Below, piece by piece: positions 8,053-32,119 of a stretch of 37,897 bases of DNA. This stretch comes from a virus. A program made the position numbers and the translations under genes. Position 1 is the stretch's first letter; each line of letters begins with the position of its first letter. The notes under the pieces are model-generated. The model saw only the letters and a list, made by a program, of their open reading frames with translations, was not told the DNA's origin and made no database searches. The DNA lies in IMG/VR virus record IMGVR_UViG_3300029619_000018, positions 1 to 37,897 of that record; one strand, given 5' to 3'.

Positions 8053-8127
8053 GCTCCCGTAGCTCAATGGTAGAGCGGCTGCCTTGTAAGCAGCGAGTTA
8101 TAGGTTCAAGCCCTATCGGGTGCTCCA
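8053..8127 (+). tRNA. tRNA-Thr (anticodon UGU) with encoded CCA
   Basis: Manual cloverleaf:
- Acceptor stem GCTCCCG/CGGGTGC, with one U-U at positions 3:70.
- D arm GCTC-AATGGTA-GAGC.
- Anticodon arm GCTGC-CTTGTAA-GCAGC.
- Variable loop GAGTT.
- T arm ATAGG-TTCAAGC-CCTAT.
- Discriminator T, then CCA. Confidence 0.8.
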
Positions 8128-8264
8128 CCTTCATGTTTTATTTCCTTTTTACGGGGCCGCCGATGCCCCGTTATCCCATCGGCCGAAGATACATGACCTT
8201 CGTAAAAAAGGTGCCGCGCTGGCAGGCCGCAAGTTCGCAATAGTCTGCCTTACCAAAAGCAGCC

Positions 8265-8297
8265 AGAGAGTACCGAAAGGCGCTCTCTTTCTTTATG
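8265..8297 (+). terminator. Terminator-like hairpin in the leader of the phosphoesterase gene (weak call)
   Basis: AGAGAG-TACCGAAAGGCG-CTCTCT followed by TTCTTTAT. The stem has an internal bulge. Confidence 0.3.
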
Positions 8298-8317
8298 CCA
8301 TAAAGGAGGGGATACCT

Positions 8318-9109
8318 CTGGATTTAATAGTCCGCAAAATCCCGCAGAGCGACACCATCAAGGTATATCCGGTATCTGATGTGCATTTGGGCAGCATCCT
8401 ACATGATAAAGAGGGCTGGCAAGCATTCTGCCGCCGGGTAGAGCGGGAGGATGCTTATCTCATCCTTGGCGGCGATCTCATCAACAACAATACCAGGAAC
8501 GCGGTGGGAAGCCCCTTTGAGGATTATATCCGCCCGCGGGAGCAGAAAAAGATGATGGTGGAAATGCTAACGCCAATAAAGGATAAGATACTCTGCGCGG
8601 TATCCGGTAACCACGAAGCGAGGACAGCCAGGGACACCGACCAAGACATTATGGGCGATATCATGTGCAAGCTGGACATGGAGGACTACTACGCCGAGGA
8701 CATAGCATTCCTCAAACTGGAGATTGGGCGCAGGGTAACAAGAGATATCCCTATCACCAGCTATACGATGGCTGTTACCCATGGCTCGGGCGGCGGCATT
8801 TACACCGGTGCAACGGTCAACCGCAATGAGCGCTTCGGCTACACCATAGAGGGCATTGACGCTCTGATTGTTGGCCATACCCACAAAGGCACCATCAGTA
8901 AGCCCAAAAAGATCGTGGTGGACAGTAACAACAATGTTATCCGTACCAAGCAGCTGGTAGTGGTTAGCTGTACCGCATGGCAGCAGTACGGAGGCTACGC
9001 AGCCCGGAAGATGCTGCTGCCCAGCAGTGAGAGCGACCATGAGCAGCCGCAGACGCTCCTGCTGTGCGGGAACAAGACAGGCACTAAGCGGATAACCACG
9101 GTTTGGTAA
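8318..9109 (+). CDS. Calcineurin-like metallophosphoesterase
   Basis: Motifs occur in order: VSDVHLG, ILGGDLINN, SGNHE, VTHGSGGG, VGHTHKG. There is no in-frame ATG/GTG after the tRNA. AAGGAGGGG lies 7 nt before an in-frame CTG at 8318, so the start is uncertain. Confidence 0.7.
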   Translation: MDLIVRKIPQSDTIKVYPVSDVHLGSILHDKEGWQAFCRRVEREDAYLILGGDLINNNTRNAVGSPFEDYIRPREQKKMMVEMLTPIKDKILCAVSGNHEARTARDTDQDIMGDIMCKLDMEDYYAEDIAFLKLEIGRRVTRDIPITSYTMAVTHGSGGGIYTGATVNRNERFGYTIEGIDALIVGHTHKGTISKPKKIVVDSNNNVIRTKQLVVVSCTAWQQYGGYAARKMLLPSSESDHEQPQTLLLCGNKTGTKRITTVW

Positions 9110-15681: not shown

Positions 15682-17589
15682 ATGAGATATTCTCCGGCAA
15701 AACTCCCCAGCGCTGATGTGGTAAAGACCAATGCCATGGTCATTAACGACTTTTATGGCTGCGACTTTTCCAGCGGCGCAACCAATATCGACCCAAGAAG
15801 AAGCCCCAACTGCGAGAACATGATCCGTTCCTCCCCCGGCCGCGTGAGAAAGCGCCTTGGCTTTGCCAAAACAGCGGTATACGATGGCCGTATTAATGGC
15901 CGGTTCTCTCTGGATGGGACAGATATTATCCATGCGGGCACGAAACTGTATGCAGGCGATACGCTGATCTCTTCCGCCATGAACGATGCCTTTTCGGTTG
16001 GCAAGAACTTCGATAAAGCGCTGTACCTGCTGGATGGAGCACACTACTACAAGGTAACGCACAGTGGCGGAACCTTTACCGTGGCTAATGTATCGGACAG
16101 CGCCTATGTACCGCGCATCGTTATCAATAAAAATCCGGATGGTACCGGCGGAACAACTTATGAGGATATCAACCTCATGTCGGATAAGTGGACGGAATCT
16201 TTCTATGTAGGAGATAAGACCGCAGCAGCAACAGTATTCCAACTTTCCCTTGAAAATTTGGATACAACACCTGTAACGGCAAAGATATTGCAAGCTGACG
16301 GTTCCTTTGTAGACAAGGTGGAGACTACCGACTTTACTGTAAACCGCACCAGCGGCACCGTGACATTCGTAGCCGCTCCGGGTAAATCCCCTTTGGAGGG
16401 CGCGGACAATGTATATATCACTGCATCAAAGGACAGGAGCGAGAGCCGAAGCCGCATTACGAACTGCGATACCTGTATTGTGTATGGCGAGACGGGCACC
16501 CGGCTATTTGTGACCGGCGATCCGAACTTTAAGAACAGGGATTTTTGGTCGGCGCAGAATGATTTTTCTTATTTTTCCGATCTATCCTATTCGATACTGG
16601 GCGAGGACAGCGAGCGCATTGTAGGTTATTCCATCGTGGGCGACAGGATAGCGGCCCACAAGAGCGGAACCACCGGCGCGGTGTATGTGCGCACCGGCTC
16701 CACGGTAACGGAGACCGATGATCTTGGCAACAGCGTGGAGACCTTTGCCTTTAAGACCGGAAATGTAATCACCGGACACGGCGCAATCGCTCCGCACAGC
16801 TTTGTGCCGACCGATAACGAGCCGCTGTTCCTTTCCTCCACCGGCATCTTCGCACTGACTGCTTCCGATGTGACCGGCGAGCGCTATGTGCAGAGCCGCA
16901 GCTTTTATATCAATCCGAAGCTGCTTTCGGAAAGCAATATCGCCGATGCCTATGCCTGCATCCACAAGGACTTTTATTTCATTGCGGCCGGTGCTGGCGT
17001 GTATGTGCTTGACCTGCTGCAAAAGCACTACGAGGATGGGGAGCCGTATTCCAACTACCAGTACGAGTGCTTTTATCTGACCGGAATACCCGCAAGGGTG
17101 ATCTGGGACGATAACGGCGAACTGTTCTTTGGTACGGCGGATGGCAAAGTATGCAAATTCAATACCGATGAGACCGCTCCAAACTCCTACAACGACACGA
17201 TGGACGGGGAGACATACACACCAGTAGGGTGCCAGTGGGAAACCCCAGATATCGATGGCAAGACCTTTTACTCCAGCAAACACTTCCGGTACATGGCCTG
17301 CAGGCTGTCCGCTTTTGTGCGCACCAGTGTAAACGCCTATGCGATGTGCAGCGGCAAATGGATCTCCATCCTGACCGATGCCCGAACGGCAAGGTTTTTC
17401 TCGTGGGAGGACATCGACTGGTCGAAATGGACATGGAGTACCGATGCCACCCCAAAGGTGCTGGGGCGCAAGCTGGATATGCGCAATCTGGATAAGGTGC
17501 GCTTCCGGTTCTCCAATGCAAATGCGGAGCCTTTCGGCATAGAAAACATTGCCGTAGAGTACCGAGAAACCAAGAAATACAGGGGGTAA
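15682..17589 (+). CDS. Large virion structural protein, possible tail hub/nozzle
   Basis: 635-aa protein with a strong AAGGAGGGG RBS. Lies between the adaptor-like gene and the fibre gene. Confidence 0.4.
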   Translation: MRYSPAKLPSADVVKTNAMVINDFYGCDFSSGATNIDPRRSPNCENMIRSSPGRVRKRLGFAKTAVYDGRINGRFSLDGTDIIHAGTKLYAGDTLISSAMNDAFSVGKNFDKALYLLDGAHYYKVTHSGGTFTVANVSDSAYVPRIVINKNPDGTGGTTYEDINLMSDKWTESFYVGDKTAAATVFQLSLENLDTTPVTAKILQADGSFVDKVETTDFTVNRTSGTVTFVAAPGKSPLEGADNVYITASKDRSESRSRITNCDTCIVYGETGTRLFVTGDPNFKNRDFWSAQNDFSYFSDLSYSILGEDSERIVGYSIVGDRIAAHKSGTTGAVYVRTGSTVTETDDLGNSVETFAFKTGNVITGHGAIAPHSFVPTDNEPLFLSSTGIFALTASDVTGERYVQSRSFYINPKLLSESNIADAYACIHKDFYFIAAGAGVYVLDLLQKHYEDGEPYSNYQYECFYLTGIPARVIWDDNGELFFGTADGKVCKFNTDETAPNSYNDTMDGETYTPVGCQWETPDIDGKTFYSSKHFRYMACRLSAFVRTSVNAYAMCSGKWISILTDARTARFFSWEDIDWSKWTWSTDATPKVLGRKLDMRNLDKVRFRFSNANAEPFGIENIAVEYRETKKYRG

Positions 17590-17592
17590 GAT

Positions 17593-20124
17593 ATGTTTGA
17601 AAAAATAAAAGCGTCCGATGGCAATGCTTATACCCCGGACGCTGTATTTACCGATAGCGATGGCAACAGGGTGGGTGTAATCGGACAGGAAACGACCCCC
17701 GGCCTGTCTGCCAGTGAGATGCAGTATTCCGTAGAGCAGGTCGTGCGTGAGGTAGTGATTCCCGCGTACAACAGCCTGGTGGACGCGCTGAATGCCTTGA
17801 CCGCTGCCGCCAACATGGGCGCAGAGGATATCAGCGGTGCGGCATCGACCGTACAGGAAGAGCTGGAAAAGCGGATCCTGACCGGCAATGTGAAGTACAT
17901 CCGCCTTAACGATGACAAGGTGCTGGAAACCAGCGAAGATGGCGTAACATGGGAAGCGACCGGCTCCTCCGGCCACATCATTGTCAAGCCGGACGGGACA
18001 GTAGCCCCGCAGCGCAGCCGCATGAAGTTTGCCAACGGAACTGTGACCGATGACGGCGAGCAGACCATCATCACCGGCCTGAAAGGCGATACCGGCCCGC
18101 AGGGCGAGAAAGGCGACACAGGCGAGCAGGGGCCGAAGGGTGACCAAGGCCTGACAGGCCCCGTTATTGTTCCCACCGTAGATGCAGACGGCGTCATGTC
18201 CTTTACCATACAGGATACGGCGATTGCACCGCAGGCCGTCAGTGTGAGAGGCCCGCAGGGCCCGCAGGGCGTACAGGGCCAGCAGGGTGCCCAGGGCACA
18301 AGAGGCCCGCAGGGTATTCAGGGCGTACAGGGTATCCAGGGCCCCAAGGGCGAAACAGGCGAACAGGGTCCTGCCGGTGCTACTGGTGCCACAGGCGCAA
18401 CCGGTCCCAAAGGTGATAAAGGCGATACTGGCCCCAAGGGTGATACCGGCGCAACCGGTGCCCGTGGTGCAACAGGCGCTACCGGCGCACAAGGCCCGGC
18501 TGGTCCCGCAGGCCCCAAGGGTGAACAGGGCGATACCGGAGCCACAGGCGCAACCGGGGCGACAGGTGCTACAGGTGCAGAAGGCCCTGCTGGCCCTCGT
18601 GGCTTAAAGGGCGAAAAGGGAGACAAAGGTGATACTGGTGCAACAGGCGCTACCGGCGCTACTGGTGCGCAGGGGCCTATGGGACCGCAAGGACCGACAG
18701 GCCCTGCCGGTAAAGATGGAACCAGCCTGTATATCGAGGACAGCTATCCTACACTGGCAGCGCTGAAAAACGCGATCCCCGCCGGGAACAACAAGATGTA
18801 CTATGTGCAGGAGGACGGCGAGTGCTACATCTGGAGCGAGACGGCCAATGACTGGGTAAGCGTTGGCGCTTTGCAAGGCCCCATCGGCCCTCAAGGCCCT
18901 CAAGGCGTACAGGGGCCACAAGGCGAGCAAGGCCCAGCTGGCGCTACCGGTGCTACTGGCGCTGCTGGAGAACAAGGCCCGCAGGGTGAGAAAGGCGACA
19001 AAGGGGACACTGGCGAGCAAGGCCCCACAGGCGCTACTGGTGCAACAGGCGCGACAGGCCCGCAAGGCCCAGCCGGTTCTCCCGGTGCTGACGGTGCAGC
19101 TGCTACTATTAAAATAGGTACAGTAACCTCCGGCGATGCTGCTTCCGTTACCAACAGCGGCACAACCTCTGCTGCGGTATTCGACTTTGTACTGCCCAAA
19201 GGCGATAAGGGCGAAAAAGGAGATACCGGTGCTACAGGTCCGCAGGGTGAGACCGGCGCAACCGGCCCGGCTGGTGCTACCGGCGCTACAGGCCCGCAAG
19301 GCGAACAGGGCGTTCAGGGGCCGCAGGGCGAAGTGGGTCCGGAGGGGCCGCAAGGTCCTGCCGGTGCAGCAGGAAAGGATGGCAAATCCGCCTACCAGAC
19401 TGCCGCAGAAGCAGGATACACCGGGACGGAAACCGCATTTAACGCGGCGCTGGCGGATGTGCCCGGCCATATCGCAAGCAAGGCCAACCCCCACGAAGTA
19501 ACCAAAACGCAAGTTGGCCTTAGCAATGTGGACAATGTGAAGCAGGCCCCCTATACCCATGTTTCCGATAAGGCTAACCCACATAGCGTGACCAAAGCCC
19601 AGGTCGGGCTTGGAAATGTAGATAACACCAGCGATGTCAATAAGCCTGTTTCCACTGCACAGCAGACAGCGATTAACGCCTGCAAGGTAAAGAAAGCGAG
19701 CGTTACCCTGACCGCTGCCGGGTGGACAGGAGCTGCAAGCCCCTATGCGCAGACCATAACCCTTTCCGGCATTACCGTAAACAGCAAGGTGGATATCCAG
19801 ATGGATGCAACCGTCCTTGGCGCTATCCTCGACAGCGGTACATCTGCCCTTTGGATTGAGAACAACAACGGTACCCTTACCGCCAAGGCAATGGGCGAAA
19901 AGCCCAATGCGGACATGGAGGTACAGGTGATGATAACAGAGATCATCAACGGTGGGGGCAGTATCTCCGGCAATGCCATCTATGCGCCATCCGGCGGCGG
20001 TGGCTTTGTAGCTTCCGCTACGGCACCGGATACCAAGCTGCTGTGGATCGATACCGCAAACGGCGGTATTATCAAATACCACAACGGCACTGCATGGGTA
20101 GCTGTTGGCGCGGCATTCAGTTAA
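17593..20124 (+). CDS. Collagen-like tail fibre protein
   Basis: Four blocks of G-X-Y repeats. Two copies of the fibre motif ANPH.VTK.QVGL.NVDN. Beta-rich C-terminal domain. Confidence 0.85.
18070..19383 (+). repeat. Collagen-type G-X-Y coding repeats in four blocks (about 18070-18165, 18247-18720, 18872-19090, 19198-19383)
   Basis: GGC/GGT recurs every third codon ([19 protein letters not shown] and similar). Block edges are approximate. Confidence 0.85.
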
Positions 20125-20138
20125 GGGGGTGAAACATA

Positions 20139-20759
20139 TTGGCTCTTAATTCTCAGAACCAGATCCTTGCCTCGGACTTTGTAAGCCTTAAAGCAAGGGT
20201 AAAAGCGGAAATGAATCGTCGCTGCCGCTCCGGCTCTCTGACGGCCTATGCCGGAGCAGCCTACGACTACAGCGTTGTCCCCGCCAATGGGGTCATCGTC
20301 AAACCGGAACACCTTAACAAGCTGGTCGTACCGATCAACGCGATTTCGCCCAGTGGGTATACCGAAAAAGCAGCTGGGGACGCCGTCCCGGAGTTGGCCA
20401 CACTGGATGCAAAGCTGGCAGGCCATGAAGCATATCCCATGCGTGGCAGCGGTTCGGATTGCGCATCCGGCTGCAGCGGACTGTGCAGCTCCGGATGCTA
20501 TAATAGCTGTTCTGGTTGTGGCGGATCTTGCTCTTATGACTGCAGCGGGTGTAGTGGAACCTGTACTGGCGACTGCGAAGGGACATGTTCTGGAGGCTGC
20601 AGCACATCGTGCGGAGGAGCTTGCTGGCGGGATGGCTGCACCAGCAACTGTACAGCAGCTTGTAGAATGGATTGTACTGGAGGGTGCAAAGGAAATTGCG
20701 GCAGTATATGCTCTACGAATTGTAGAACGACCTGTGTATCAACATCTGGAACATCTTAA
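20139..20759 (+). CDS. CXXX-repeat protein: 107-aa N-terminal domain plus a 24-Cys ladder; putative radical-SAM substrate
   Basis: TTG start 7 nt after GGGGGTG. The C-terminal region (20460-20735) reads CASGCSGLCSSGCYNSCSGCGGSCSYDCSGCSGTCTGDCEGTCSGGCSTSCGGACWRDGCTSNCTAACRMDCTGGCKGNCGSICSTNCRTTC. Confidence 0.75.
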   Translation: MALNSQNQILASDFVSLKARVKAEMNRRCRSGSLTAYAGAAYDYSVVPANGVIVKPEHLNKLVVPINAISPSGYTEKAAGDAVPELATLDAKLAGHEAYPMRGSGSDCASGCSGLCSSGCYNSCSGCGGSCSYDCSGCSGTCTGDCEGTCSGGCSTSCGGACWRDGCTSNCTAACRMDCTGGCKGNCGSICSTNCRTTCVSTSGTS

Positions 20760-20776
20760 TTGTAGGAGGTAAATTT

Positions 20777-21289
20777 ATGATAGGCGTATATCAAGCAAAT
20801 GCTATGGTAAAAGTGGCAGAACTTTCCGAGATTTCTGTTCAGGAGATCAAGGAGGCTTTAGCTGAAAAAAAGGTGGGAGTTGGCCGAGAACTGTATCCCA
20901 TTTTATGTGATCAACCGATGGCTCCTGCCGTGAATGCAGAAGAAAGTACGGTACGCAGCTATGCTTCCAATGTAATCGCAAAGGTTGAGGATGCACTGGG
21001 AATTAAATATGATGAAGCCGTAAAAGGTGCTGTTACAGAGTATTTTGTCCTTGACCGCAAACGATATGGCAGTAGCATAGAACAAATCGTTGAGCGGAGC
21101 TTGTCCGTACTCGCTATGTACCCCAGTGCAGAAAAAGGCTCTTTCTTATGGTTCTTGATGGAAACCATAAAGCGCCAACTGATGGGAGTGTATATTAAGG
21201 ATACCAAATTCCTCCCGGAGCTGAAGATTTTAATTGAAGAAATAAAGAAAACTTCGGCAGCTTATGATCTGTATGCCGCTGAACTCTAA
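20777..21289 (+). CDS. Hypothetical protein (170 aa) inside the radical-SAM cassette
   Basis: Strong AGGAGG RBS. Visibly more AT-rich than its neighbours. Helical sequence with no recognisable motif. Confidence 0.55.
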   Translation: MIGVYQANAMVKVAELSEISVQEIKEALAEKKVGVGRELYPILCDQPMAPAVNAEESTVRSYASNVIAKVEDALGIKYDEAVKGAVTEYFVLDRKRYGSSIEQIVERSLSVLAMYPSAEKGSFLWFLMETIKRQLMGVYIKDTKFLPELKILIEEIKKTSAAYDLYAAEL

Positions 21290-21301
21290 GGAGGAATCAA
21301 A

Positions 21302-21583
21302 ATGGCATTGAAAGTAACAATCCCTGAGCAGGACTGCACCTGCGTGGAACGCCTGTGGTACGAGTACAACGCGGCGCTGGGTGTTCTGCGTTATCTGATG
21401 GCGCAGCCTGATGTACTGGAGGAAAACCTGCAGCTGTATGCCGATAGCTGTGAAGCAAAGAGCGTGGAGCTGGAGCTGGCCAAAAGAGAAGTGAGTGAGC
21501 GCTTTAAGCCCGACGGCGCAGTTATGAGCTACTCTTTTAACTTTGACGAGTGCGCCATTGAGTATCAGATGGAGGCCGTATGA
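21302..21583 (+). CDS. Small accessory protein, putative CXXX-repeat modification system partner
   Basis: 93-aa protein with an AAGGAGG RBS, ATGA-coupled to the radical-SAM gene. The size and position match the small partner I recall for CXXX-repeat maturase cassettes. Confidence 0.5.
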   Translation: MALKVTIPEQDCTCVERLWYEYNAALGVLRYLMAQPDVLEENLQLYADSCEAKSVELELAKREVSERFKPDGAVMSYSFNFDECAIEYQMEAV

Positions 21584-22896
21584 AGCGAAGCGAAATAAGC
21601 TATGCGGATTACCTTTGCACCTTGTACCCGGAGGAGAGCGCCAAAATGCTGCCGGAGGAATTTCTCTGCCGCGACATTACTTTTCAGGTGACCGATGACT
21701 GCCCGATGGCCTGCACTTATTGCTACCAGGGGCATAAAGGGCACCGGGTAATGTCAAAAGAAACGGCCAGAAAAGGGGTAGACCTCCTTTTCAAAATGTG
21801 GGAGGAAGATAAGGGGACTTTTATCAACCGTAAAACAAAGGCCATTGTTCTGGATATGATCGGTGGGGAACCTCTGATGGCTATTGATGTGATCGATGAT
21901 ATCTGCACCTACTTTGTGCGGCGCTGCCTGGAGCTGCAGCACCCGTGGATCTATACATGGAGGGTCAATATCACATCGAATGGTGCTTTGTACTTTGAAC
22001 CGAAAGTGCAGGAGTTCCTCCACAAGTTCCGGAATAATCTGAGCTTCGCTGTAACGCTGGACGGGCCGAAAGAGATCCATGATGCCTGCCGGGTCTATCA
22101 TGATGGGCGCGGTAACTTTGATGACGCCTACGCGGCAATGAAGCACTTTAACGCCCACTTCTACGAAGAATTGGGGACAAAAGTGACCATTGCCCCGGAG
22201 AACATCCACAATCTTAACCGCATCGTGGACTTCTTTATGGCCGAGGGCATGAAAACAATACACGCCAACTGTGTACATGAAGCCAAGTGGACACCGGAAC
22301 ACGCCAAGGTGCTGTACGATGAAATGAAGCAGATGGCTGATAAGCTGCTGAAAAACAACGACGGTACCACGGTCTCCCTGTTCTCGGAAGATAATTTCCA
22401 CCCGCTTCCGCCAGAAGAAAACGGGAACTGGTGCGGCGGTACCGGGGCCATGCTGGCGTTTGACCCCGATGGTATTGCCTACCCCTGCCTGCGGTATATG
22501 CCATCCTCTTTGGGCAACGATGTCCCGCCCATTATCGTCGGTACCGTCGATGGGGTATTTGAGCAGCCGGAGCACAAAGCAATTAAGGAATACCTTGACA
22601 GCATTACCCGTCGTTCGCAGTCTACGGATGAATGCTGGGAATGTCCGGTCGCTTCCGGCTGCGCATGGTGCTCCGCATGGAATTATCAGGAGACCGGCTC
22701 GGTCAACTGCCGCAGTACCAATATCTGTGTGATGCACAAGGCGAGAGCACTGGCCAATGTGTACTACTGGAACAAATGGTATAAGCAAAACAACATCAAT
22801 AAGAAATTCAAAATGCATCTACTCCGAGAGGAAGCAGAAAAAATAATCAGCCCGCAGGAGTATGATATGCTGCTGCGGCTGAGTGAGGAGGACTGA
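21580..22896 (+). CDS. Radical SAM / SPASM-domain peptide maturase
   Basis: CX3CX2C motif (DDCPMACTYCYQG). GGEPLM. SPASM-type C-terminal clusters WCGGTGAMLAFDPDGIAYPC and CWECPVASGCAWCSAWNY. Confidence 0.85.
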   Translation: MKRSEISYADYLCTLYPEESAKMLPEEFLCRDITFQVTDDCPMACTYCYQGHKGHRVMSKETARKGVDLLFKMWEEDKGTFINRKTKAIVLDMIGGEPLMAIDVIDDICTYFVRRCLELQHPWIYTWRVNITSNGALYFEPKVQEFLHKFRNNLSFAVTLDGPKEIHDACRVYHDGRGNFDDAYAAMKHFNAHFYEELGTKVTIAPENIHNLNRIVDFFMAEGMKTIHANCVHEAKWTPEHAKVLYDEMKQMADKLLKNNDGTTVSLFSEDNFHPLPPEENGNWCGGTGAMLAFDPDGIAYPCLRYMPSSLGNDVPPIIVGTVDGVFEQPEHKAIKEYLDSITRRSQSTDECWECPVASGCAWCSAWNYQETGSVNCRSTNICVMHKARALANVYYWNKWYKQNNINKKFKMHLLREEAEKIISPQEYDMLLRLSEED

Positions 22897-22897
22897 T

Positions 22898-23155
22898 ATG
22901 GATGCAAGTGTTTGGGTAGCAATTATCACAGGTGTGGCGTCGGTATTGGCGGTGGTGATAACCAACAGCCGGAGCAATGCCGAACGGGACTACAAGATGG
23001 AACGGGCGCAGGCCGTAACCGACACCAAGCTGGAAGAACTGACCCGGGAGGTGCGGCTGCACAATAACTTCGCGGAACGGATCCCCGTTTTGGAAGAACA
23101 GAACAAAGCCCTTAACAAAAGGGTAACCAACCTTGAGCAGAGAAAAGGAGCGTAA
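22898..23155 (+). CDS. N-terminal TM plus coiled-coil lysis-associated protein (XhlA-like)
   Basis: GGAGGA RBS before ATG 22898. TM segment VWVAIITGVASVLAVVI. Coiled-coil segment LEELTREVRLHNNFAERIPVLEEQNKALNKRVTNLE. Lies directly upstream of the holin. Confidence 0.5.
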   Translation: MDASVWVAIITGVASVLAVVITNSRSNAERDYKMERAQAVTDTKLEELTREVRLHNNFAERIPVLEEQNKALNKRVTNLEQRKGA

Positions 23156-23157
23156 CT

Positions 23158-23484
23158 ATGAACGAATTTGTAACCTGGACAACTCTTGGAACCTATGCCG
23201 GCGCTGTGATGATGGTCACTATCATCACCCAGTTTTTGAAGCAGACCCCCCTTGCCAAGCTGAACGCACAGCTGCTGGCGTACATTGTGGCGGTGGCTAT
23301 CCTCATCGGCGCAGAAGCATTTAACGACTCTGCCGTGACGGTACAGGGCGTAATCCTGTGCCTGCTGAACGCCGTTATTGTGGCGCTGGCTGCCAACGGT
23401 ACATACGATGCCGCTACCACCAATATGATGAAAAAGCCTGTGGTGGCGGAATACGAGCACGAGGAGGTCGTGGAAGATGCCTAA
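23158..23484 (+). CDS. Holin
   Basis: 108-aa protein with about three hydrophobic segments and a charged C-terminus. Lies immediately upstream of the endolysin and overlaps it. Confidence 0.65.
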   Translation: MNEFVTWTTLGTYAGAVMMVTIITQFLKQTPLAKLNAQLLAYIVAVAILIGAEAFNDSAVTVQGVILCLLNAVIVALAANGTYDAATTNMMKKPVVAEYEHEEVVEDA

Positions 23485-24193
23485 AGTGTATCTTTCCCCG
23501 GAACGCAGACCAAAACCGCATGGGCCGTATTACGGCTTTCCCGGCGTGTATGAGCATGATGTGTGTGTGGAAATCGGCGCTTATTGCGCCGATGCCCTCA
23601 CCCGCTGCGGCTTTGAGGTAATGGTAGCTGACCCTGCCAAGACCATGCAGGAGCGTGTAGCGGAAAGCATAGTATGGGACAGTGACCTGCATATGCCCAT
23701 TCACACCAACGCCAGCACTGCCACCACAAAAGAGGGGACGGCGCAGGGGCCTACCATTCTCCGCTACGGCAAAGCCGGCGGCGTAAGCGACCGGGCCTGC
23801 CAGATGGTTTATCGCCGCCTGATGGAGATTTACCCCCGGAATACCCACCGGGGCGTGTACCAGAAAGACGAGTTTTATGAAATCGGCAGAACCCCGATGC
23901 TTTCCATCTATCCGGAGCTGGCTTTCCACGACAACGGACAGGACGCGATCTGGCTGGTGCAGAACAAGAAAGCCATAGGGGAAGCACTGTGCAAAGGCGT
24001 GTGCGACTGGTTTGGCGTGACCTACAAGGCAGAGGAAGAAAAGCCGCAGACAGACTATGAGCGGCTTCTTGCCGAGCTGGAGGAAGTAAAAGAAAAGTAC
24101 AGAGTAGAGCACGCATCTGCGCAGGCGCTGCGTGCCAGAATTTTAGCCGCCGTGGAACAGTATGACACGGCGGCATTTGATAAGGAGGGATAA
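23477..24193 (+). CDS. Endolysin, N-acetylmuramoyl-L-alanine amidase (Amidase_3-like)
   Basis: YLSPE...YEHDVC..IG..L..CGFEV...DLHMPIHTNA...YPELAFHDN pattern. The C-terminus is coiled-coil-like rather than an obvious wall-binding repeat. Confidence 0.75.
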   Translation: MPKVYLSPERRPKPHGPYYGFPGVYEHDVCVEIGAYCADALTRCGFEVMVADPAKTMQERVAESIVWDSDLHMPIHTNASTATTKEGTAQGPTILRYGKAGGVSDRACQMVYRRLMEIYPRNTHRGVYQKDEFYEIGRTPMLSIYPELAFHDNGQDAIWLVQNKKAIGEALCKGVCDWFGVTYKAEEEKPQTDYERLLAELEEVKEKYRVEHASAQALRARILAAVEQYDTAAFDKEG

Positions 24194-24979: not shown

Positions 24980-27900
24980 ATGGATAGAAAAACGCTGGAA
25001 CAAAACTATCAAAAATCTTTCGGTGCATCGCCTGCCGCGGAGCTTGAGCAGAACTACCAGCGGAGCGGCATTGACTCTCTTGTTCAATCTGTGAAGAAAG
25101 CTACCCAATATAATCCCTCTGCCCCCAGCACGCAGCCTACACAGGCTGCGCCTGCTGGGGCTTCTTCTCGTAAGCAGAGCGATGCCATGAAGGAGCAGCT
25201 GGATACGATTAAGAAACAGAGGGACGACGCGGCAATTAAGGCCGGGGCCTATATGCGAGCTGGGAATATGCAGCAGCAGGCCAAGGAGCAGCAGAAGATT
25301 GCCAACAAGGCTGCCTTTGAGTACGAGAACGCCTATACCCAGTGGAAGAACCAGCGAAATGCGGAAGCGGTAGAGGACTACAACCCGGACGAGAATAAAT
25401 TCAAGGCAGGCGATGCTGCCCTTGCTGGTGTGCAGAATGCATTCCAAAGCATGAGGCAGTATGCCGCTGCAGCATCTTCGTATCTTTCCGGTAATCCGGA
25501 AGCGCAGGCATGGGAAGCCAAGCGGCTGATGGAAAGCGGCGTAAGCGGTGCCGAAGCCGTAAAGCGGGCCGGGCTTGCCGATAAGAGAGAAATCCCCATC
25601 ACAGACTATAAGACACAGGCAGAACTGCGCCACGAAAAGAATGTAGCCAGCGTTGGTGCTGTTGAGGGCGGAGCGCTGCAGCTGGTCAATACGATCTCGA
25701 ACATGGTGCCGTCCCTTGTTGCAAACGCGGTCCTCCCCGGCTCCGGTTTGCCCGTGATGGCTGCATCCGCCGCGGGCAATAAATATGCAGATGCCTATGA
25801 GAAGTACGGGAATACGGATACAGCATTCGTACTCGGCTCCGCTGCCGGTGGCGCTTCCATGCTTACCGAACAGTTTGGCGGTTTGTATGGCTCGCTGGGC
25901 AAGTCTGCCGCCGGGCAGGCCGTGGCCAAGAAACTGATGGCGGAAGCCCCCGGCCTGTATAACCTCGCCAATTCCGTGGGTGGCAAGTGGCTGCGGGACG
26001 CTCTCTCCGAAGGCATTGAGGAGGGTGCAGAGGATGTTATCAACTACGCCACTGAAAAGGCCCTCACCGGCGACAGTGACGAGATGGACAACTTCGGCTA
26101 TGATATCCTGCTGGGTGCTCTTGCAGGCGGTGTATTGGGCGGCGGCAACGCTGCGATGCGTTCCGTCACCTACAGCCGTGTAGGCAAGGCACTGAATGCT
26201 TCCCCTGCTGCCGTAGCGCAGCAGGTGCAGGAGGGCATGGAGAAAGGCGCAGGCACCGCACCTGCCATTTATGCGGCGGAGGTGCAGAAGAACCCCAGCA
26301 GCCAAATGGTGGGCAGACTGTATGAAGCAAACCTCACCTATGATGCCGAGAGCGGCCTTTCCAAAATCCAGAACGATATTACCCAGGTCTCCATCAATGA
26401 GATCAAGGCGATGGTCTCCAAAGCGGATGCGCTGGCGCAGGCAGCCCAAAAGCTGAATGTGGAAGCTACTCCGCAAGCCGTAGCAACAGCTATTACCGAT
26501 GCCCAGCGCACACAATCCATTAAAACAGCCGAGGACAGCGTAGGGCAGGCTTTTGCTCCCACAGTTGATAATCCTGTCAACGCAGGAGAGAAAGCCTACA
26601 ACAGCGCCCTTGCCGGTGTAGCAGCTAACCAAGGCGTAGCTGCTCGCATCAATAACGACCCTGCCGCAAGACAGGCATTCTCCCAGTTGACCGGCGTACA
26701 GTTCAGCGGAAACACAGCACAGGATATTGCCGCTATCGAAGTGGCTACGCAGAACATTGCGAAGTCCGGTAAACAGGCGATCTCCCAGGCGGAATATGCC
26801 CAGCGTGTCGCTGCCGCAGGAGAACAGGCTGCTGCCCAGTTCGATGCCGATATGCAGGCGCAGGCGGAGCAGATGCAGCGGGAATCCGATGAAAGATGGC
26901 TTTCCGTTGAGCAAAACACCATTACCGATGTAGACGGAAAGCGCCGCATCAAGGAGATCACCAATACCGATGTGCGCGGCAATACCGAGATCGGCTATAA
27001 GAAAGCTGAAATTCTCGGCAGTAAAAAGAAAGCTGTTGCCGAGGTGAACAATGCAGCGAAATACCTTGGCAAGACTATCGTGTGGTTTGAGGGTGCGGTG
27101 CAGGTCAATGGGCAGTACCGACTGACCAATGGCTATCGCGCACCGGATGGCACCATTTATGTCAACATCAATTCCCGTGATCCGCTGATGGTTACTTTCG
27201 GGCATGAGATGTTTCACGACCTTGTAGCTGATGGCAAGTATTCCGGGATGATTGATACGCTGGTAGAGAACCCAGACTATGCCGATATGGTAAAGGGCAT
27301 GATGAATGCCAAAACCGAACTGTACGAGCGCAATGGAATTGAGCTTGACCCGGATGCAGCTGCGGAGGAAGTCGCTGCCGATATCAGCGGTGATCTTTTG
27401 GGCAGCCGGGATATGCTGGAGTACATCGGCGCAAGAAATACGGAAGCCGCCACCGGCATTAAAGGTTTCTTGAACCGTATCCTCAAAAAGCTAAAAGGAA
27501 AGCCCTCTGCACAGGAAGCCTATAACAGGCTGTCCGAATCGCAGAAGGCTTTGCTTGATGGGATGGAGGGGAGAACGGAGGTAGAAGAAGCGGGGAAGAT
27601 ATCTTATTCGCTGATGCGGGAAGCGGTGGAGAAAAACAACCGCCCATTTGCGGAACAGTTTGCCGACTACAAAGCTGGCAAAATGAAACCGACGGAGCTG
27701 TTTGCCCTTGGCAATACATCGCAGTATCTGCAGGCTGCCGGAATAGGGAATGAGCCCATTGTTATGGCGCAATCTGTTGTGGCAAAGGCGCAGAGAAAAG
27801 CAAAGGTTGATACCCATGGGCACAACCTTTCCGATAATGTTTTGCTGAAGCTTCCGGAAATGCTGGACAAGCCGGCGCTTCTGTTGAAATCGGACACTGT

Positions 27901-30900
27901 CCCCAATGCAGCAGTTATTGTTACCTCTACAGCGGATTCCGACGGGAACCCTGTTGTTGTGGCGCTCCACTTGAGCCGGAGCGAGGGCTTTGATATTGTA
28001 ACAAGAGTGGCAAGTCTGTATGGAAAAGAAAACAGCAGAGACTTCCTTGCGGAGCAAATGCTTCGGGGAAATCTGCTTGGTTACAGCAAAAAAGAAGCCA
28101 ACCGACTGCTTCATCGAGATGGGCTCCAATTGCCCAGACGGAACACAGCGGTTGACTTCGACACCATTAGTGTAGCACAAGACACTGATGCTGTCAATAA
28201 CTATTCTATGCAGAATAGCGCAGAAGATGCAAGCGGGAAACATTCCCTTATGGATATCCCGGCAATGGACAGTACCGGCAGGGAGCTTTCTGCCGAGCAG
28301 CGGGAGTATTTTAAGGACAGTAAGGTGAGGGACGAGGACGGAAACCTGCTTGTAGTGTATCACGGAACGGATGCCGACTTTACCGTTTTTGACGCTTCCA
28401 AAGGCAGGGCAAACATGGATATTCAGGGAATGTTTTTCAGCCCTTGGGAGCTTGATGCGCAGGGCTACGGCAGTAATGTAAGCGCCTATTACCTTGACAT
28501 TAAAAACCCCGCGAGCGAAGCCGTTGGGTATAAAGCGCTCAACAGGTTCAAGGGGCAAAACAATGCCGGAGTAAAGGCAAGAGAGTACCTGCAGAACCTT
28601 GGCTACGATGGCGTAAACAACGGAAACGAGGAGTATATTGCCTTTGAACCGAGCCAGATCAAGCGCATCGACAACCTCACCCCAACCAAAAGCAAGGACA
28701 TCCGCTACTCCCTCATGGAAGATGCCCAGTACATGGCCGACATCGACAAAGCGGTATCTGAAGCTACGCAGAAAGCAAACGATGAGCTGAAGGCTGCACA
28801 AGCCGAGGTGAAGAACATCCGTCAACAGCTTGCTGACTATCGCCAGCAGGCAACTGCGGAAGCGAAGATGAATGACCGCTGGCGTGATGCAGAGACGAAA
28901 CTCCTCACCGAAATAGCAGCGGCTAAAGAGCGAGAGAAGGCAGCAAAGGCTCGTTCCGAGTTCATGCAGAAGTACGATTCCCTTTCCAAACAGTACCGCG
29001 CTGACCTGCGGGCTAACAACCAGCAGGCACAGGAAAAGTATAACGAAAAACTGACCGAAGCCAAGGACGAATTCAACCGGCGGAGGACGCAGGACCGCAT
29101 TGACCGAGTGGTGCGGGAGGATCGGGCAAAGAGCAAAGCCCGATTGAGGACGGCGGAACAGAAATCCACCACTACGGAAGATGTTGCCAAGGTTCTGACC
29201 GAAATGCCGAAGAAGGACAAGGAAACCTTTAAGGCGAAAGCCGCCAAAGACTGGCGCACCTTTAAGCGCCAGTGGATCAATACCAAGGATGAGCTGGAGC
29301 GCTTCGGGAACGAAGTCGGCGACAGCAGAATCATGTATGCAGCGAACAATGTCGGGCAGGCATCTGCGGCGGCGCAGTATTCCATTGGCGGCGCCGGGCA
29401 GTATGACCTTAACGGCAAGAAGATCGGCGATAAGAACCTCATGCAGGTATTTGAACCGGCGAAAAAGGCTGGCTTGACCGATGAGTTTTACACCTACCTG
29501 CTGCACGAGCACAATGTAGACCGCATGAGTGTACGCGAAAACGCGCAGCGGCAGCTTGCAGAACTTCGGGCGAAACTGAACAGGGAAGTCAACGGCTTTT
29601 CGGAAATGACAGATGAGAACATCGCTACAGCCGCAGGCAAGGATACTACCCTTACAAAAGCCTACACCGAGGCACAGATTGCCGCCGCCAAGCAATATAA
29701 GCAGTTCCAGGCGTGGGCAGAAAAGCAGTTTGACAAGCCTGTATTCGGCAGCAGCGTGACCGCAGACGATAGCCGTGCCGCAGCAGCTGACCTGCTGGAT
29801 GCACACCCTGAATTTGAGAAGTGGGCAAAGGATGTGTATGCCTACCTTGACGGATTGATGGAGGTGCGAAAGCAGGGCGGACTCGTGAGCACTGATATGG
29901 CACAGTACATGAAGGAACTGTATCCGCACTATGTTCCCACCTACCGCGATATGCCCAGCACCTCCGGCGGCTACTCCAACCCTAACAGCGTTGCGGTGAA
30001 CAGCACCATAAAGTCCGCAAAAGGTGGCAACCAGGATATCATGCCGCTGATCGACAGTATTGCCAGGCAGACCTTGCAGACCTTCTCCGCAGCAAAAAAG
30101 AACATTCTGGGCAATATTCTGTATGAAGATGCAATGGATACTACCCGTGATATCTCGGAATACATTCAGAGTGTTACAGAGGAAGGCGATCTCGTTGACC
30201 TTGATGCGGATTCCGCAGAGAACCTCAAGAACACGCTGCGCATTTGGGTGGATGGCAAACCGGTTACTCTGCACATGAGTGAAGCAATGGCCGATGGGTT
30301 TAGACCCATTGAGCAATCCAATTCCTTTGGAATGAAAGCATTGCGCTCCATCAATAGCACATTCAAAAAGCTGGTTACCCAGTGGAACCCGGTGTTCATT
30401 GTTCGCAACTTCATCCGCGATGCGCAGTCCGCTTTGTATTTCACCCATTACAGCAACGCCACATTCATTAAGAATTATGGTAAGGCTGTAAAAGAAATCG
30501 CGACAAACGGGAAGTACTGGCAGCTGTACCAGGCAATGGGCGGTAAGGGAACAACCTACTACGACCCAAAGACTGGCCTTGCGGATCGCCGCCATTTCAA
30601 AAATGCTACGGCAGATAAACTCCTTGGCGGTTTGAATAAGGCTATTGATATACTGTCCTTCGCCAATGAGGCAGTCGAACAGTACCCTCGTCTTGCAGAG
30701 TTCATCAGCACAATGGAGGCAACCGGAGATGTGCAGCAGGCGCTTTACAATGCGGCTGACATTACCACCAACTTTGGCCGCGGCGGCTTTGCAGCCCGCA
30801 AACTGAATGCATCTCTGGTGCCGTTCTTCAACCCCGGAATGCAGGGCCTTTCCAAGAACATTCGCAATGTCATTGACCGGCGCGGCTGGAAAGAGATTGG

Positions 30901-32119
30901 ACAGCTGGTCTCCCGGTTGCTTATCAATGGTGTTGCACCCGGCATCATTATGGGCCTGCTGTACGATGGGCTGAAAGAGGATGATGACTACAAGGAACTT
31001 TCCGACTACATTAAGGATAGTAACATCCTCATCAAGATCGGCGACAATAAGTTCATTAAAGTCCCGATGGGTCGTGAGCCTTCCGTTATTACGGCATTCA
31101 CCAACCGTATGTGGCGCTGGTTGAAAGGCGAACCCGCAAGCAGTGCATTTGCTGGTTATCCGTCTTTCGCCATTGAGCAGATTGCGCCGAACAATCCGCT
31201 GACCAATAACATCTTCGCTGGTATTACTGCAATGAGCACCAATAAGACTTGGTACGGCGGGGACATCGTTTCCAGCTACATGGAGGAAAAGCCGGACTAT
31301 CTGCAGTACGATGAAAGCACCGATGCGTTTTCTATCTGGCTGGGCGAGATCACCCGCCACGGGAAGAATGGCATCGAGGGGCTTTCGCCGAAGAAAGTCA
31401 ATTACTTGATTGACCAGTATTCCGGCTTTATCGGTGACTGGGTGCTCCCGGCGCTTTCCAAAAAGGCGGATGTTCCTGCGGTGGTAAAGGCATTTGTTGT
31501 AGATAGCGTCCGGCAGAACCGGCTGGGCAGCGACTTCTACGATGCACTGGACGAAGCCAAACAGGTAAAGGATACCGAGATGGCAACTGCAGCTGATGAT
31601 GCGACCTATTCCTACCTGTATAAGCAGAGCAAGGCTGCATCCGAAATCACGAAGCAGCTCAAGGAAATCTACAACAGCGGCGAAAAGACCCGCAAGGAGA
31701 AGATGAGCGAGGCTCGTGACCTGCTGGAATTACGAAACGAGATTTATAGAAAAGCCCTTTTGACCGTCGGCACCTACGAGGAAACCGCAAAGAGCATCGG
31801 AAGCGCAGACAGCGATGTGGTGAAGCGCGAAGCAAACCGCAAGGCGTTCGGCGCGGAATATGCGCTAAAGAACTACAACAAGGATGTCGGAGAGAAAGCT
31901 GCAGAATATGTGGCGCATGGAGTTACCTATGACCAGTACTATGCCGCATACTTTGCTGCCCGCGGCATCACCGGCGACAAGGACGAGAACGGTAAGACGA
32001 TTACCAACTCTGCCAGCCGGAAAAAGAAAGATGCCATCGACAAGGCTGTGCCAAACGCAACCACAAAGCAAAAGCACCTTTTGTACGAAGCGATTGGCGT
32101 TTCAGAAAAAGTGTGGTAA
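24980..32119 (+). CDS. Giant polyvalent (multi-domain, probably virion-packaged/injected) protein, 2379 aa
   Basis: Gly/Ala-rich hydrophobic N-terminal region. HExxH zincin motif (FGHEMFHDL, nt 27203-27217). PARP-like ART motifs at about nt 28330-28680. Long coiled coil (about 28700-29280). Roughly 950-aa C-terminal region of unknown type. Confidence 0.75.
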   Translation: MDRKTLEQNYQKSFGASPAAELEQNYQRSGIDSLVQSVKKATQYNPSAPSTQPTQAAPAGASSRKQSDAMKEQLDTIKKQRDDAAIKAGAYMRAGNMQQQAKEQQKIANKAAFEYENAYTQWKNQRNAEAVEDYNPDENKFKAGDAALAGVQNAFQSMRQYAAAASSYLSGNPEAQAWEAKRLMESGVSGAEAVKRAGLADKREIPITDYKTQAELRHEKNVASVGAVEGGALQLVNTISNMVPSLVANAVLPGSGLPVMAASAAGNKYADAYEKYGNTDTAFVLGSAAGGASMLTEQFGGLYGSLGKSAAGQAVAKKLMAEAPGLYNLANSVGGKWLRDALSEGIEEGAEDVINYATEKALTGDSDEMDNFGYDILLGALAGGVLGGGNAAMRSVTYSRVGKALNASPAAVAQQVQEGMEKGAGTAPAIYAAEVQKNPSSQMVGRLYEANLTYDAESGLSKIQNDITQVSINEIKAMVSKADALAQAAQKLNVEATPQAVATAITDAQRTQSIKTAEDSVGQAFAPTVDNPVNAGEKAYNSALAGVAANQGVAARINNDPAARQAFSQLTGVQFSGNTAQDIAAIEVATQNIAKSGKQAISQAEYAQRVAAAGEQAAAQFDADMQAQAEQMQRESDERWLSVEQNTITDVDGKRRIKEITNTDVRGNTEIGYKKAEILGSKKKAVAEVNNAAKYLGKTIVWFEGAVQVNGQYRLTNGYRAPDGTIYVNINSRDPLMVTFGHEMFHDLVADGKYSGMIDTLVENPDYADMVKGMMNAKTELYERNGIELDPDAAAEEVAADISGDLLGSRDMLEYIGARNTEAATGIKGFLNRILKKLKGKPSAQEAYNRLSESQKALLDGMEGRTEVEEAGKISYSLMREAVEKNNRPFAEQFADYKAGKMKPTELFALGNTSQYLQAAGIGNEPIVMAQSVVAKAQRKAKVDTHGHNLSDNVLLKLPEMLDKPALLLKSDTVPNAAVIVTSTADSDGNPVVVALHLSRSEGFDIVTRVASLYGKENSRDFLAEQMLRGNLLGYSKKEANRLLHRDGLQLPRRNTAVDFDTISVAQDTDAVNNYSMQNSAEDASGKHSLMDIPAMDSTGRELSAEQREYFKDSKVRDEDGNLLVVYHGTDADFTVFDASKGRANMDIQGMFFSPWELDAQGYGSNVSAYYLDIKNPASEAVGYKALNRFKGQNNAGVKAREYLQNLGYDGVNNGNEEYIAFEPSQIKRIDNLTPTKSKDIRYSLMEDAQYMADIDKAVSEATQKANDELKAAQAEVKNIRQQLADYRQQATAEAKMNDRWRDAETKLLTEIAAAKEREKAAKARSEFMQKYDSLSKQYRADLRANNQQAQEKYNEKLTEAKDEFNRRRTQDRIDRVVREDRAKSKARLRTAEQKSTTTEDVAKVLTEMPKKDKETFKAKAAKDWRTFKRQWINTKDELERFGNEVGDSRIMYAANNVGQASAAAQYSIGGAGQYDLNGKKIGDKNLMQVFEPAKKAGLTDEFYTYLLHEHNVDRMSVRENAQRQLAELRAKLNREVNGFSEMTDENIATAAGKDTTLTKAYTEAQIAAAKQYKQFQAWAEKQFDKPVFGSSVTADDSRAAAADLLDAHPEFEKWAKDVYAYLDGLMEVRKQGGLVSTDMAQYMKELYPHYVPTYRDMPSTSGGYSNPNSVAVNSTIKSAKGGNQDIMPLIDSIARQTLQTFSAAKKNILGNILYEDAMDTTRDISEYIQSVTEEGDLVDLDADSAENLKNTLRIWVDGKPVTLHMSEAMADGFRPIEQSNSFGMKALRSINSTFKKLVTQWNPVFIVRNFIRDAQSALYFTHYSNATFIKNYGKAVKEIATNGKYWQLYQAMGGKGTTYYDPKTGLADRRHFKNATADKLLGGLNKAIDILSFANEAVEQYPRLAEFISTMEATGDVQQALYNAADITTNFGRGGFAARKLNASLVPFFNPGMQGLSKNIRNVIDRRGWKEIGQLVSRLLINGVAPGIIMGLLYDGLKEDDDYKELSDYIKDSNILIKIGDNKFIKVPMGREPSVITAFTNRMWRWLKGEPASSAFAGYPSFAIEQIAPNNPLTNNIFAGITAMSTNKTWYGGDIVSSYMEEKPDYLQYDESTDAFSIWLGEITRHGKNGIEGLSPKKVNYLIDQYSGFIGDWVLPALSKKADVPAVVKAFVVDSVRQNRLGSDFYDALDEAKQVKDTEMATAADDATYSYLYKQSKAASEITKQLKEIYNSGEKTRKEKMSEARDLLELRNEIYRKALLTVGTYEETAKSIGSADSDVVKREANRKAFGAEYALKNYNKDVGEKAAEYVAHGVTYDQYYAAYFAARGITGDKDENGKTITNSASRKKKDAIDKAVPNATTKQKHLLYEAIGVSEKVW

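Follow-up and report, generated by a model that had tools for sequence, protein, structure and literature searches.

The bacterial CXXX system is known through a series of protein family models (TIGR04114/04117/04118, TIGR04115, TIGR04116 and TIGR04119) and combines a radical S-adenosylmethionine (SAM)/SPASM enzyme with short Cys-repeat precursors. One such cluster, in a Lachnospiraceae metagenome-assembled genome (MAG; locus L057), encodes a TIGR04115 enzyme (522 bits), a TIGR04119 "CXXX repeat peptide maturase" (235 bits), ABC exporters, a TIGR04116 "CXXX repeat peptide modification system protein" of 95 amino acids (aa; 62 bits) and a 61-aa precursor passing TIGR04114. In another, from Faecalibacterium gallinarum (L058), the enzyme is a fused one of 735 aa, accompanied by a TIGR04116 protein, an ABC transporter and a precursor of 61 aa. 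As far as we could find, this radical SAM family has so far been defined by bioinformatics only, with no chemistry or biology reported, and to our knowledge the chemistry of the classical system is not established in the literature. Here we describe a relative of this system in a phage, on a 37.9-kb viral contig (IMG/VR record IMGVR_UViG_3300029619_000018), the whole of which is called the window below. It encodes a TIGR04115-type enzyme together with a protein carrying a ladder of 24 Cys, directly behind a tail-fibre gene.

Other described systems bear on this locus as well. QhpD is a SPASM radical SAM enzyme that puts Cys thioethers into QhpC, a protein that stays a structural subunit of its complex. 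Fibre tips and cognate chaperones form modules in phage T4 (gp37/gp38) and in phages Mu and P2 (tail fibre with Tfa), and we know of no fibre module that includes a radical SAM maturase. PapB forms six thioethers in the repeated Cys-X3-Asp motifs of PapA (freyrasin; PMC12373016).

We propose, with a probability that we put at roughly 55%, that the cassette of the window produces an enzymatically cross-linked, fibre-associated protein and represents a CXXX maturation system recruited into the adsorption apparatus.

Results

Layout of the cassette

The cassette consists of four tightly packed plus-strand genes at 20139-22896, all pointing in the same direction. The features of the cassette and of the fibre gene before it are as follows.

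17593..20124, plus strand: collagen-repeat tail fibre, 843 aa (Pfam Collagen and PHROG tail-fibre families)
20017..20124, plus strand: C-terminal motif of the fibre, fibre residues 809-843 and stop (conserved in relatives)
20139..20759, plus strand: Cys-ladder protein, 206 aa, candidate substrate (two-domain, adjoins the radical SAM system)
20139..20459, plus strand: N-terminal domain (N-domain) of the ladder protein, residues 1-107 (conserved positions)
20460..20735, plus strand: CXXX ladder, residues 108-199, 24 Cys (spacing; a 7-aa tail and the stop extend to 20759)
20777..21289, plus strand: p170, 170 aa, predicted all-alpha accessory protein (conservation, AlphaFold2)
21302..21583, plus strand: p93, 93 aa, putative remote TIGR04116-type partner (ATGA overlap, profile-profile comparison)
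21580..22896, plus strand: radical SAM/SPASM maturase, 438 aa (TIGR04115)

The genes are separated by 14 nt (fibre stop to ladder gene), 17 nt and 12 nt, followed by a 4-nt overlap of the TGA stop of p93 with the ATG of the radical SAM gene (ATGA, 21580-21583). The ladder gene starts with TTG, 7 nt past the ribosome binding site AAGGGGGTG. Promoter or terminator signals were looked for on the plus strand of the cassette and none was found internally. An initial annotation, made from the letters alone, had described four co-oriented, packed genes, a 206-aa protein with 24 Cys in 92 residues before a 7-aa tail, a 93-aa gene ATGA-coupled to the enzyme gene and a 438-aa enzyme with CX3CX2C and SPASM Cys motifs. 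The exact positions of the open reading frames (ORFs), the count of Cys spacings, the overlap and the invariance of the Cys set among relatives agree with it on each of these points.

Relatives were collected as 33 viral loci, that is, contigs with a radical SAM relative at least 40% identical to that of the window (100% down to 41%), and by scanning species-representative bacterial genomes with the radical SAM alignment. The bacterial scan returned relatives at 50% identity or less only, and the close ones were all in strictly anaerobic Clostridia-type genomes. Three gene orders were seen. The order ladder, p170, p93, radical SAM is that of the 38-kb phages; contigs of about 100 kb have the same order followed by another fibre-like gene; and a third group has the order fibre, radical SAM, ladder. 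In one further locus (L161:7946-8929, minus strand) the ladder gene is on the opposite strand, directly after a p93-like ORF and the radical SAM gene, so that adjacency of the ladder gene is kept without co-orientation.

The enzyme and its putative partner

The 438-aa enzyme matched TIGR04115 with 386.5 bits (E 1.5e-115, cut-off 350), in an alignment that covers enzyme residues 31-396 and profile positions 2-359 of 359. The second-best family was PapB (NF047865), with 155.8 bits under a cut-off of 340, and TIGR03906 (QhpD) was a distant match (82.6 bits versus a cut-off of 453). The enzyme also matched Pfam Radical_SAM and Fer4_12 and phrog_1802 (E 4.7e-54), and its gene lies two genes downstream of the 24-Cys ladder gene. 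The CX3CX2C motif is formed by C41, C45 and C48 (residues 41-48) and the C-terminal Cys set by residues 285, 303, 352, 355, 361, 364 and 383 (CX2CX5CX2C...C). All ten of these cluster Cys are invariant in an alignment of eight sequences at 41-63% identity. Judged by these profile scores, the enzyme is a true member of TIGR04115, the CXXX-repeat-target radical SAM/SPASM maturase family. The initial annotation had pointed to such a model in TIGRFAMs, and the enzyme passes its cut-off; it had also considered clustering with anaerobic sulfatase maturases, whose model gave just 43.6 bits against the 386.5 of TIGR04115.

Apart from this, the radical SAM gene of locus L019 (5780-8170) and those of L018, L020 and L021 carry an intein with a LAGLIDADG homing endonuclease. 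It matches Pfam LAGLIDADG_3, Intein_splicing and Hint and is inserted exactly before the third Cys of CX3CX2C (...CCMNCSY/CLTGDT...VHN/CYQGHKG, with slashes at the junctions). The L018 copy is split into three ORFs.

p93 showed no match in Pfam, NCBIfam or PHROGs and none to the TIGR04116 hidden Markov model (HMM) even at E up to 10. When the p93 family was compared with bona fide TIGR04116 proteins over the full length by hhalign, P was 8.3e-5 and the probability 61%; with TIGR04116 proteins pooled with fused extensions, the probability was 92% and P 6.6e-7 (reversed controls 0.15-0.17). These extensions belong to the third-group enzymes (L022-L030), which are 487-558 aa long and begin with a segment collinear with p93 (YVERL.YE … F.ECAI; hhalign P 1.3e-4), indicating a fusion of partner and enzyme genes. 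In L001-L021, p93 is a separate gene. Iterated HMM searches started from p93 stopped short of the fused enzymes, which were reached by profile-profile comparison alone. These results suggest that p93 is a remote TIGR04116 homolog, below the curated threshold for membership, as fits the small partner protein that the initial annotation had mentioned alongside the maturase model.

The ladder protein family

The ladder of the window protein occupies residues 108-199, where 24 Cys in 92 residues are spaced by four positions in 20 intervals, by three in two and by five in one. The residues between them are largely G (19), S (16) and T (10), with four each of A, N and D, and the 7-aa tail reads VSTSGTS. 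The reading frame is confirmed by its retention in relatives whose enzyme is only 41% identical, and the ladder cannot be a product of chance. A 174-aa ORF in another frame over the ladder gene (20248-20772, plus strand) was rejected as a frame artefact.

A two-domain protein of this kind is encoded beside the radical SAM gene in 32 of the 33 viral loci, the remaining locus being cut by the contig end. The shared design is an N-domain of about 105 aa, a G-[ST]-D-C junction and a CXXX ladder whose first repeats are conserved (D-C-x-x-x-C-x-G-[LM]-C). Alignment of the relatives reveals 17 invariant N-domain positions up to E97, among them K18, R20, V21, K22, A23, E24, R27, R28, Y37, D43, P48, E57, H58, K61 and P65, in the pattern LKARVKAE..RR…Y.G..YDY…P…EH..K…P.NAI. 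An alignment search retrieved 469 proteins, and no source gave any of them a name. When 1.84 billion representative proteins were searched exhaustively with phmmer, the N-domain was found in 229 clusters with no function assigned, nearly always at the N-terminus of proteins of 150-270 aa. AlphaFold2 gave it three helices at a predicted local distance difference test score (pLDDT) of 60-72, compared with <45 for the ladder and a mean of 48 for the whole protein. The separate conserved N-terminal domain that the initial annotation had seen in the candidate substrate is borne out by the invariant positions, the predicted helices and the 229 clusters. Fold recognition was tried with the model of the ladder protein, which is poor, and Foldseek against the PDB gave no match.

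Matches of the ladder protein to known families were faint. TIGR04117 gave 19.6 bits versus a cut-off of 50, no TIGR04114 match was listed, PF27846 (tSAM_targ_Cxxx_rpt, a CXXX target-repeat model) matched faintly, and phrog_6085 matched with E 1.9e-5. Among 74 distinct family members, Cys spacing is four in 79.5% and three in 18.1% of cases, and a ladder holds 13-95 Cys. At the X positions, S/T/G, G and G/S/T predominate in turn, with Asp at 3-6% per position. Given this range of lengths and the freedom of the X positions, the ladder behaves like a shaft repeat and not like a defined bioactive peptide. The longest ladders are in a 473-aa protein with 95 Cys from a Bacillota MAG (L052:6855-8276) and a 442-aa protein with 86 Cys from a viral contig (L139:6081-7409); both have the same N-domain, and the fibre motif described below is found upstream of each.

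The arrangement of domains is not fixed in the family. The ladder precedes a C-terminal globular domain in L054 and L055. The C-terminal domain of L055 is possibly homologous to the N-domain (P 2.2e-4, or 0.017 once L054 is included). In P0281 (543 aa), about 250 residues are inserted between N-domain and ladder, and the insert matches the PHROG "host range and adsorption protein" (E 2.5e-14) and a tail protein PHROG (E 7.8e-12), as well as tail fibre, Tal and PblB-type receptor-binding PHROGs and, below threshold, CBM_4_9. P0169 (375 aa) has an additional 175-aa N-terminal domain and a locus in the order fibre (with the motif), ladder, three ORFs of about 185-197 aa, a p93-like ORF and radical SAM. 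The genes for P0281 and P0169 both lie downstream of motif-bearing fibre genes. P0211 and P0230, two long Ig-repeat proteins in which between 7 and 11 weak stretches matched, were set aside as spurious matches summed over repeats.

Linkage to a family of fibre genes

The genes directly upstream of the cassette share, in each of the 33 viral loci, a C-terminal element of about 30 residues, [ST]AP..T.LLWIDT….G.[IL]KY[YH]NG..W..V..A[FY]x-stop, in which P, L, W, D, T, K, N, G and W are invariant. Its carriers are otherwise unrelated proteins of 57-843 aa. The motif was also found at five bacterial-genome loci (Clostridia-type prophages) and at L178/L179, and it is weakly present in cultured phages, in proteins annotated as tail fibre or minor tail. 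A reverse search by the motif placed a ladder gene just downstream in about two-thirds of the motif loci, most of these with a radical SAM gene.

Adjacency to the fibre gene holds in all gene-order groups and across tail modules of different kinds: podovirus-like in the window, siphovirus-type in L054 (Vallitalea), where tape measure and tail-tip genes are present and the enzyme scores 420 bits on TIGR04115, and myovirus-type with a baseplate in L028 and L055. The placement of the cassette in the tail-fibre slot, which the initial annotation had read from a single locus, thus proved stronger than stated, as the viral and prophage loci collected here have a motif fibre gene next to the cassette in very different phages. 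Its second observation on position, that the cassette lies just before the lysis genes, holds for the window but not for the siphovirus- and myovirus-type relatives, in which the cassette is inside the tail or baseplate-fibre module.

Copy number follows the same pattern. Motif, ladder and p170 genes are all present twice in L018 and in L021. In L055, a Ruminococcaceae prophage, two fibre genes 8 kb apart are each followed by a ladder gene and an ORF of about 150 aa, and there is a single radical SAM gene. The copy number of the ladder gene tracks the fibre and not the enzyme.

Two ORFs resembling C39-type peptidases were noted near motif fibres. One adjoins the ladder gene of L054 (11916-12584; Peptidase_C39_2, 23 bits versus a cut-off of 24), and the other follows a motif fibre without a ladder (L149:6115-6558). 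As a candidate leader peptidase, the L054 ORF was down-weighted because such an ORF also follows the ladder-free fibre of L149.

p170 and the exchanged distal ladder

The initial annotation had listed the 170-aa protein as an unknown, and p170 indeed matched nothing in Pfam, NCBIfam or PHROGs; it contains one Cys only. It is kept in the groups with a radical SAM identity of at least 59% and is duplicated where the ladder gene is. AlphaFold2 modelled it as eight helices with a pLDDT of 88.7. A search of BFVD matched nothing except the other allele of p170, which comes from an uncultured podovirus. Fold recognition against the PDB gave no significant match, the top ones being TPR-like peptide-binding proteins (E 0.5-2, a mere hint). 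Homology of p170 to the 175-187-aa ORFs found 3' of the ladder gene in a distant group was rejected, the hhalign P of 0.34 being equal to that of the reversed control.

Comparison of near-identical phages, whose flanks are mostly 91-99% identical, showed that the distal ladder and p170 together fall to 55-64% DNA identity. The recombining variable part of the ladder is its last third, from about residue 171. The distal ladder and p170 look like one swapped block, reminiscent of the fibre-tip/chaperone modules of other phages.

The phage around the cassette

The 843-aa fibre matched Pfam Collagen in seven stretches (E 1.6e-49) and many PHROG tail-fibre families (e.g. phrog_5073, E 1.6e-85). Antisense ORFs over its gene (16582-18492 and 18604-20082, both minus strand) were discarded as frame artefacts of repetitive GC-rich coding sequence. 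On the 3' side, the cassette is followed by genes for a 90-aa protein (phrog_1863, unknown function), a holin (phrog_1299) and an Amidase_3 endolysin. The cassette sits within the late operon. A terminase, a P22/SU10-type portal, a capsid protein and a 635-aa virion protein are among the products of the window phage, a gut-type phage that, read from its genes, is temperate and podovirus-like, temperate because a large serine recombinase with Resolvase, Recombinase and Zn_ribbon_recom domains is present (32122-33795, minus strand). No cultured relative was found in the phage collection. Some NCBI contigs of 260-534 kb, presumably with prophages, encode identical ladder proteins.

The holin/endolysin module (window 23158-24193 compared with L001/L049) is swapped among phages that are otherwise about 99% identical, with DNA identity of 50-75% there and a change of endolysin type from Amidase_3 in the window to Amidase_2 in L049. 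After the lysis genes, a 2379-aa polyvalent protein (24980-32119, plus strand) combines MuF_C, an ART-PolyVal ADP-ribosyltransferase, LPD38 and an HExxH stretch; it is probably ejected or serves in anti-defence. Genes of the early region (491-1366, 3409-4299 and 8120-9109, plus strand) code for a Rad52-like recombinase, a protein with a PAPS-reductase domain and a calcineurin-like phosphoesterase.

Discussion

A proposed stapled protein at the fibre

We propose the following course of events for the cross-linked, fibre-associated protein. Late in infection, the radical SAM enzyme and p93 would act on the 24-Cys ladder of the 206-aa protein and convert its thiols, most probably and by analogy with PapB, into a row of small rings closed by thioethers, cross-links that stay shut under reducing conditions. 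The N-domain would be a handle, recognised by p93 and the enzyme, docking the product onto the fibre, or both, and its docking partner may be the C-terminal LLWIDT...KYYNG..W element of the fibre that is always encoded next door. p170 would serve as a dedicated chaperone-like helper matched to the variable distal ladder. The product would be a covalently stapled rod or tip on the fibre that takes part in adsorption. The initial annotation had pictured it, more speculatively, as a needle or a protease-proof tip. In strictly anaerobic Clostridia-type hosts an oxygen-labile radical SAM enzyme could work, and thioethers would do there what disulfides cannot. Modification of the ladder, its thioether linkage, docking of the N-domain on the fibre motif and presence of the product in the virion are inferred. 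In its most specific form, namely that part of the host-recognition fibre of phages of strictly anaerobic gut Clostridia is a protein whose 13-95 Cys a phage-encoded radical SAM enzyme joins in an unbroken, non-reducible cross-link ladder, the proposal is tentative, and we hold it at somewhat less than even odds.

Several observations weigh against this proposal. The ladder protein of the window matches no annotated virion protein family in Pfam, PHROG or precomputed annotations. AlphaFold confidence is only moderate for the N-domain, no fold is predicted for the ladder and there is no structural match. The Cys-X3-Asp pattern of PapB is not repeated here, as Asp is at 3-6% and position +4 is Cys; since the Asp acceptor is not in the repeat, the chemistry may differ from that of PapB. 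The enzyme family is one of biosynthesis of peptides that are ribosomally synthesized and undergo post-translational modification (RiPPs), so adjacency to the fibre could reflect a shared "cargo" slot, and co-variation of the distal ladder with p170 could be plain physical linkage. Finally, about a dozen of some 43 motif loci have neither ladder nor radical SAM gene and encode other tail proteins there. As such loci exist, the motif is not a docking site dedicated to ladder proteins only; it is the mark of a wider family of fibres, and the ladder system is always associated with that family.

Alternative explanations

Of the alternatives, the one that survives best, an unlikely one in our view, is that the cassette makes a RiPP-like product: the N-domain of about 105 aa would be a long leader, and the modified ladder, possibly cleaved, would be released at lysis as a bacteriocin, a signal or a metal-scavenging peptide, with p170 as an immunity/handling protein. 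The enzyme and p93 do come from a system with classical RiPP clusters, short precursors and ABC exporters, the conserved G-[ST]-D-C junction and first repeats resemble a leader/core boundary, and the distal ladder and p170 co-vary like toxin and immunity pairs. Release at lysis would make an exporter unnecessary, and the sub-threshold C39-like ORF of L054 does adjoin a ladder gene. However, a C39-like ORF is also found behind the ladder-free fibre of L149, and neither the window cassette nor most relatives have a protease or exporter. It also speaks against this reading that ladder genes are duplicated along with fibres, and can be 8 kb away from a lone radical SAM gene, that a receptor-binding-type domain is inserted in one family member (P0281), that the ladder reaches 95 Cys in a 473-aa protein, and that the globular domain can be C-terminal to the ladder. 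An immunity function encoded among late lytic genes would, moreover, be likely to leave lysogens unprotected. The RiPP-like toxin released at lysis, which the initial annotation had offered as its own alternative, is accordingly disfavoured by the fibre-linked duplication, the adsorption-domain insert and the missing export and cleavage genes.

Less likely again is an accessory that is neither cross-linked nor part of the virion. Here the ladder would bind metal or Fe-S, or would transiently scaffold trimerisation of the collagen-like fibre, and the radical SAM enzyme would perform other chemistry, e.g. conversion of Cys to formylglycine or dehydro-residues. Dense Cys, Gly and Ser are typical of metal-binding sequences, the AlphaFold model gives the ladder no intrinsic fold, the PapB acceptor motif is absent from it, and genes directly after fibre genes often encode assembly chaperones. 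Such an accessory is hard to reconcile with strict co-conservation of a SPASM maturase of the peptide-crosslinking clade, which the sulfatase maturase model recognises so poorly. Length variation and a swapped distal end are unexpected for a catalytic or transient scaffold, and the adsorption-type domain inserted in P0281 suggests that the protein is exposed and functional in the virion.

It is very improbable that the cassette is a passenger (moron) without a functional tie to the fibre: the slot between fibre and lysis genes does commonly hold cargo, the neighbouring lysis module is itself mosaic and the motif fibre family also occurs without the cassette, but siphovirus- and myovirus-type relatives carry the cassette in the tail or baseplate-fibre module, away from lysis genes, a motif gene is immediately adjacent in each of the 33 viral loci whatever the gene order, fibre and ladder sets are duplicated together, and there are fusions with adsorption domains. 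These alternatives are weakened because copy number follows the fibre, because the linkage spans three tail types, because one ladder protein is fused to an adsorption domain and because export and cleavage genes are missing; the cross-linked fibre protein is the reading that we prefer.

Novelty and significance

The components themselves are not new, since TIGRFAMs/NCBIfam models for them have long existed and PHROGs already groups the phage copies (phrog_1802 and phrog_6085). A full-text literature search returned no account of phage CXXX or radical SAM fibre systems, which agrees with the earlier suggestion that such use of radical SAM chemistry by a phage is undescribed. The search likewise brought up no description of the N-domain and its conservation, of a target the size of a protein, of the loss of exporter and TIGR04119, or of the systematic coupling to a fibre family across tail types.

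If the proposal is correct, this would be the first enzyme-installed radical SAM modification of a virion structural protein. It would also be a new kind of stapled protein rod, whose distal end and helper are swapped to change specificity, and abundant gut phages would have an exchangeable host-range module in the distal ladder with p170. A rod that is genetically encoded, stapled by an enzyme and tunable in length would interest protein engineers. Presence of the ladder protein in the virion would imply that RiPP-type maturases can be recruited to build viral structural parts, and it would explain redox-insensitive cross-links in phages of strict anaerobes, where disulfides are unreliable. 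For RiPP enzymology, the cassette offers a large, easily expressed candidate substrate and a minimal three-helper set (p170, p93 and the radical SAM enzyme) with which the chemistry could be solved.

Comparison with known systems

QhpD belongs to another enzyme family, and QhpC receives a few specific cross-links, without a repeat ladder and outside any phage context. PapB is the closest characterised enzyme family, and its ladder of small rings has the same four-residue period. The enzyme of the window differs in that it falls far under the NF047865 cut-off, the repeat unit is Cys-X3-Cys, and the putative substrate is a protein encoded in a tail module.

With the bacterial CXXX system, the cassette shares the TIGR04115 enzyme, a putative remote TIGR04116 partner and a Cys ladder of four-residue period. 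The target is a two-domain protein of 206 aa, in contrast to precursors of 61-88 aa in the classical system. No match to the second maturase, TIGR04119, was found among the eight proteins encoded at 17593-24193, and the cassette of the window includes no ABC exporter or leader peptidase, its neighbours being fibre and lysis genes. p170 and the place in a late operon beside a fibre gene are particular to the phage cassette as opposed to classical CXXX clusters. On present family assignments, the phage cassette keeps the enzyme and a diverged partner and is without TIGR04119, exporter and short precursor.

The fibre-tip/chaperone modules have no sequence or fold similarity to the cassette proteins. 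What the cassette shares with them is the arrangement of a fibre, a distal element and a small accessory protein, the latter two of which are exchanged together here.

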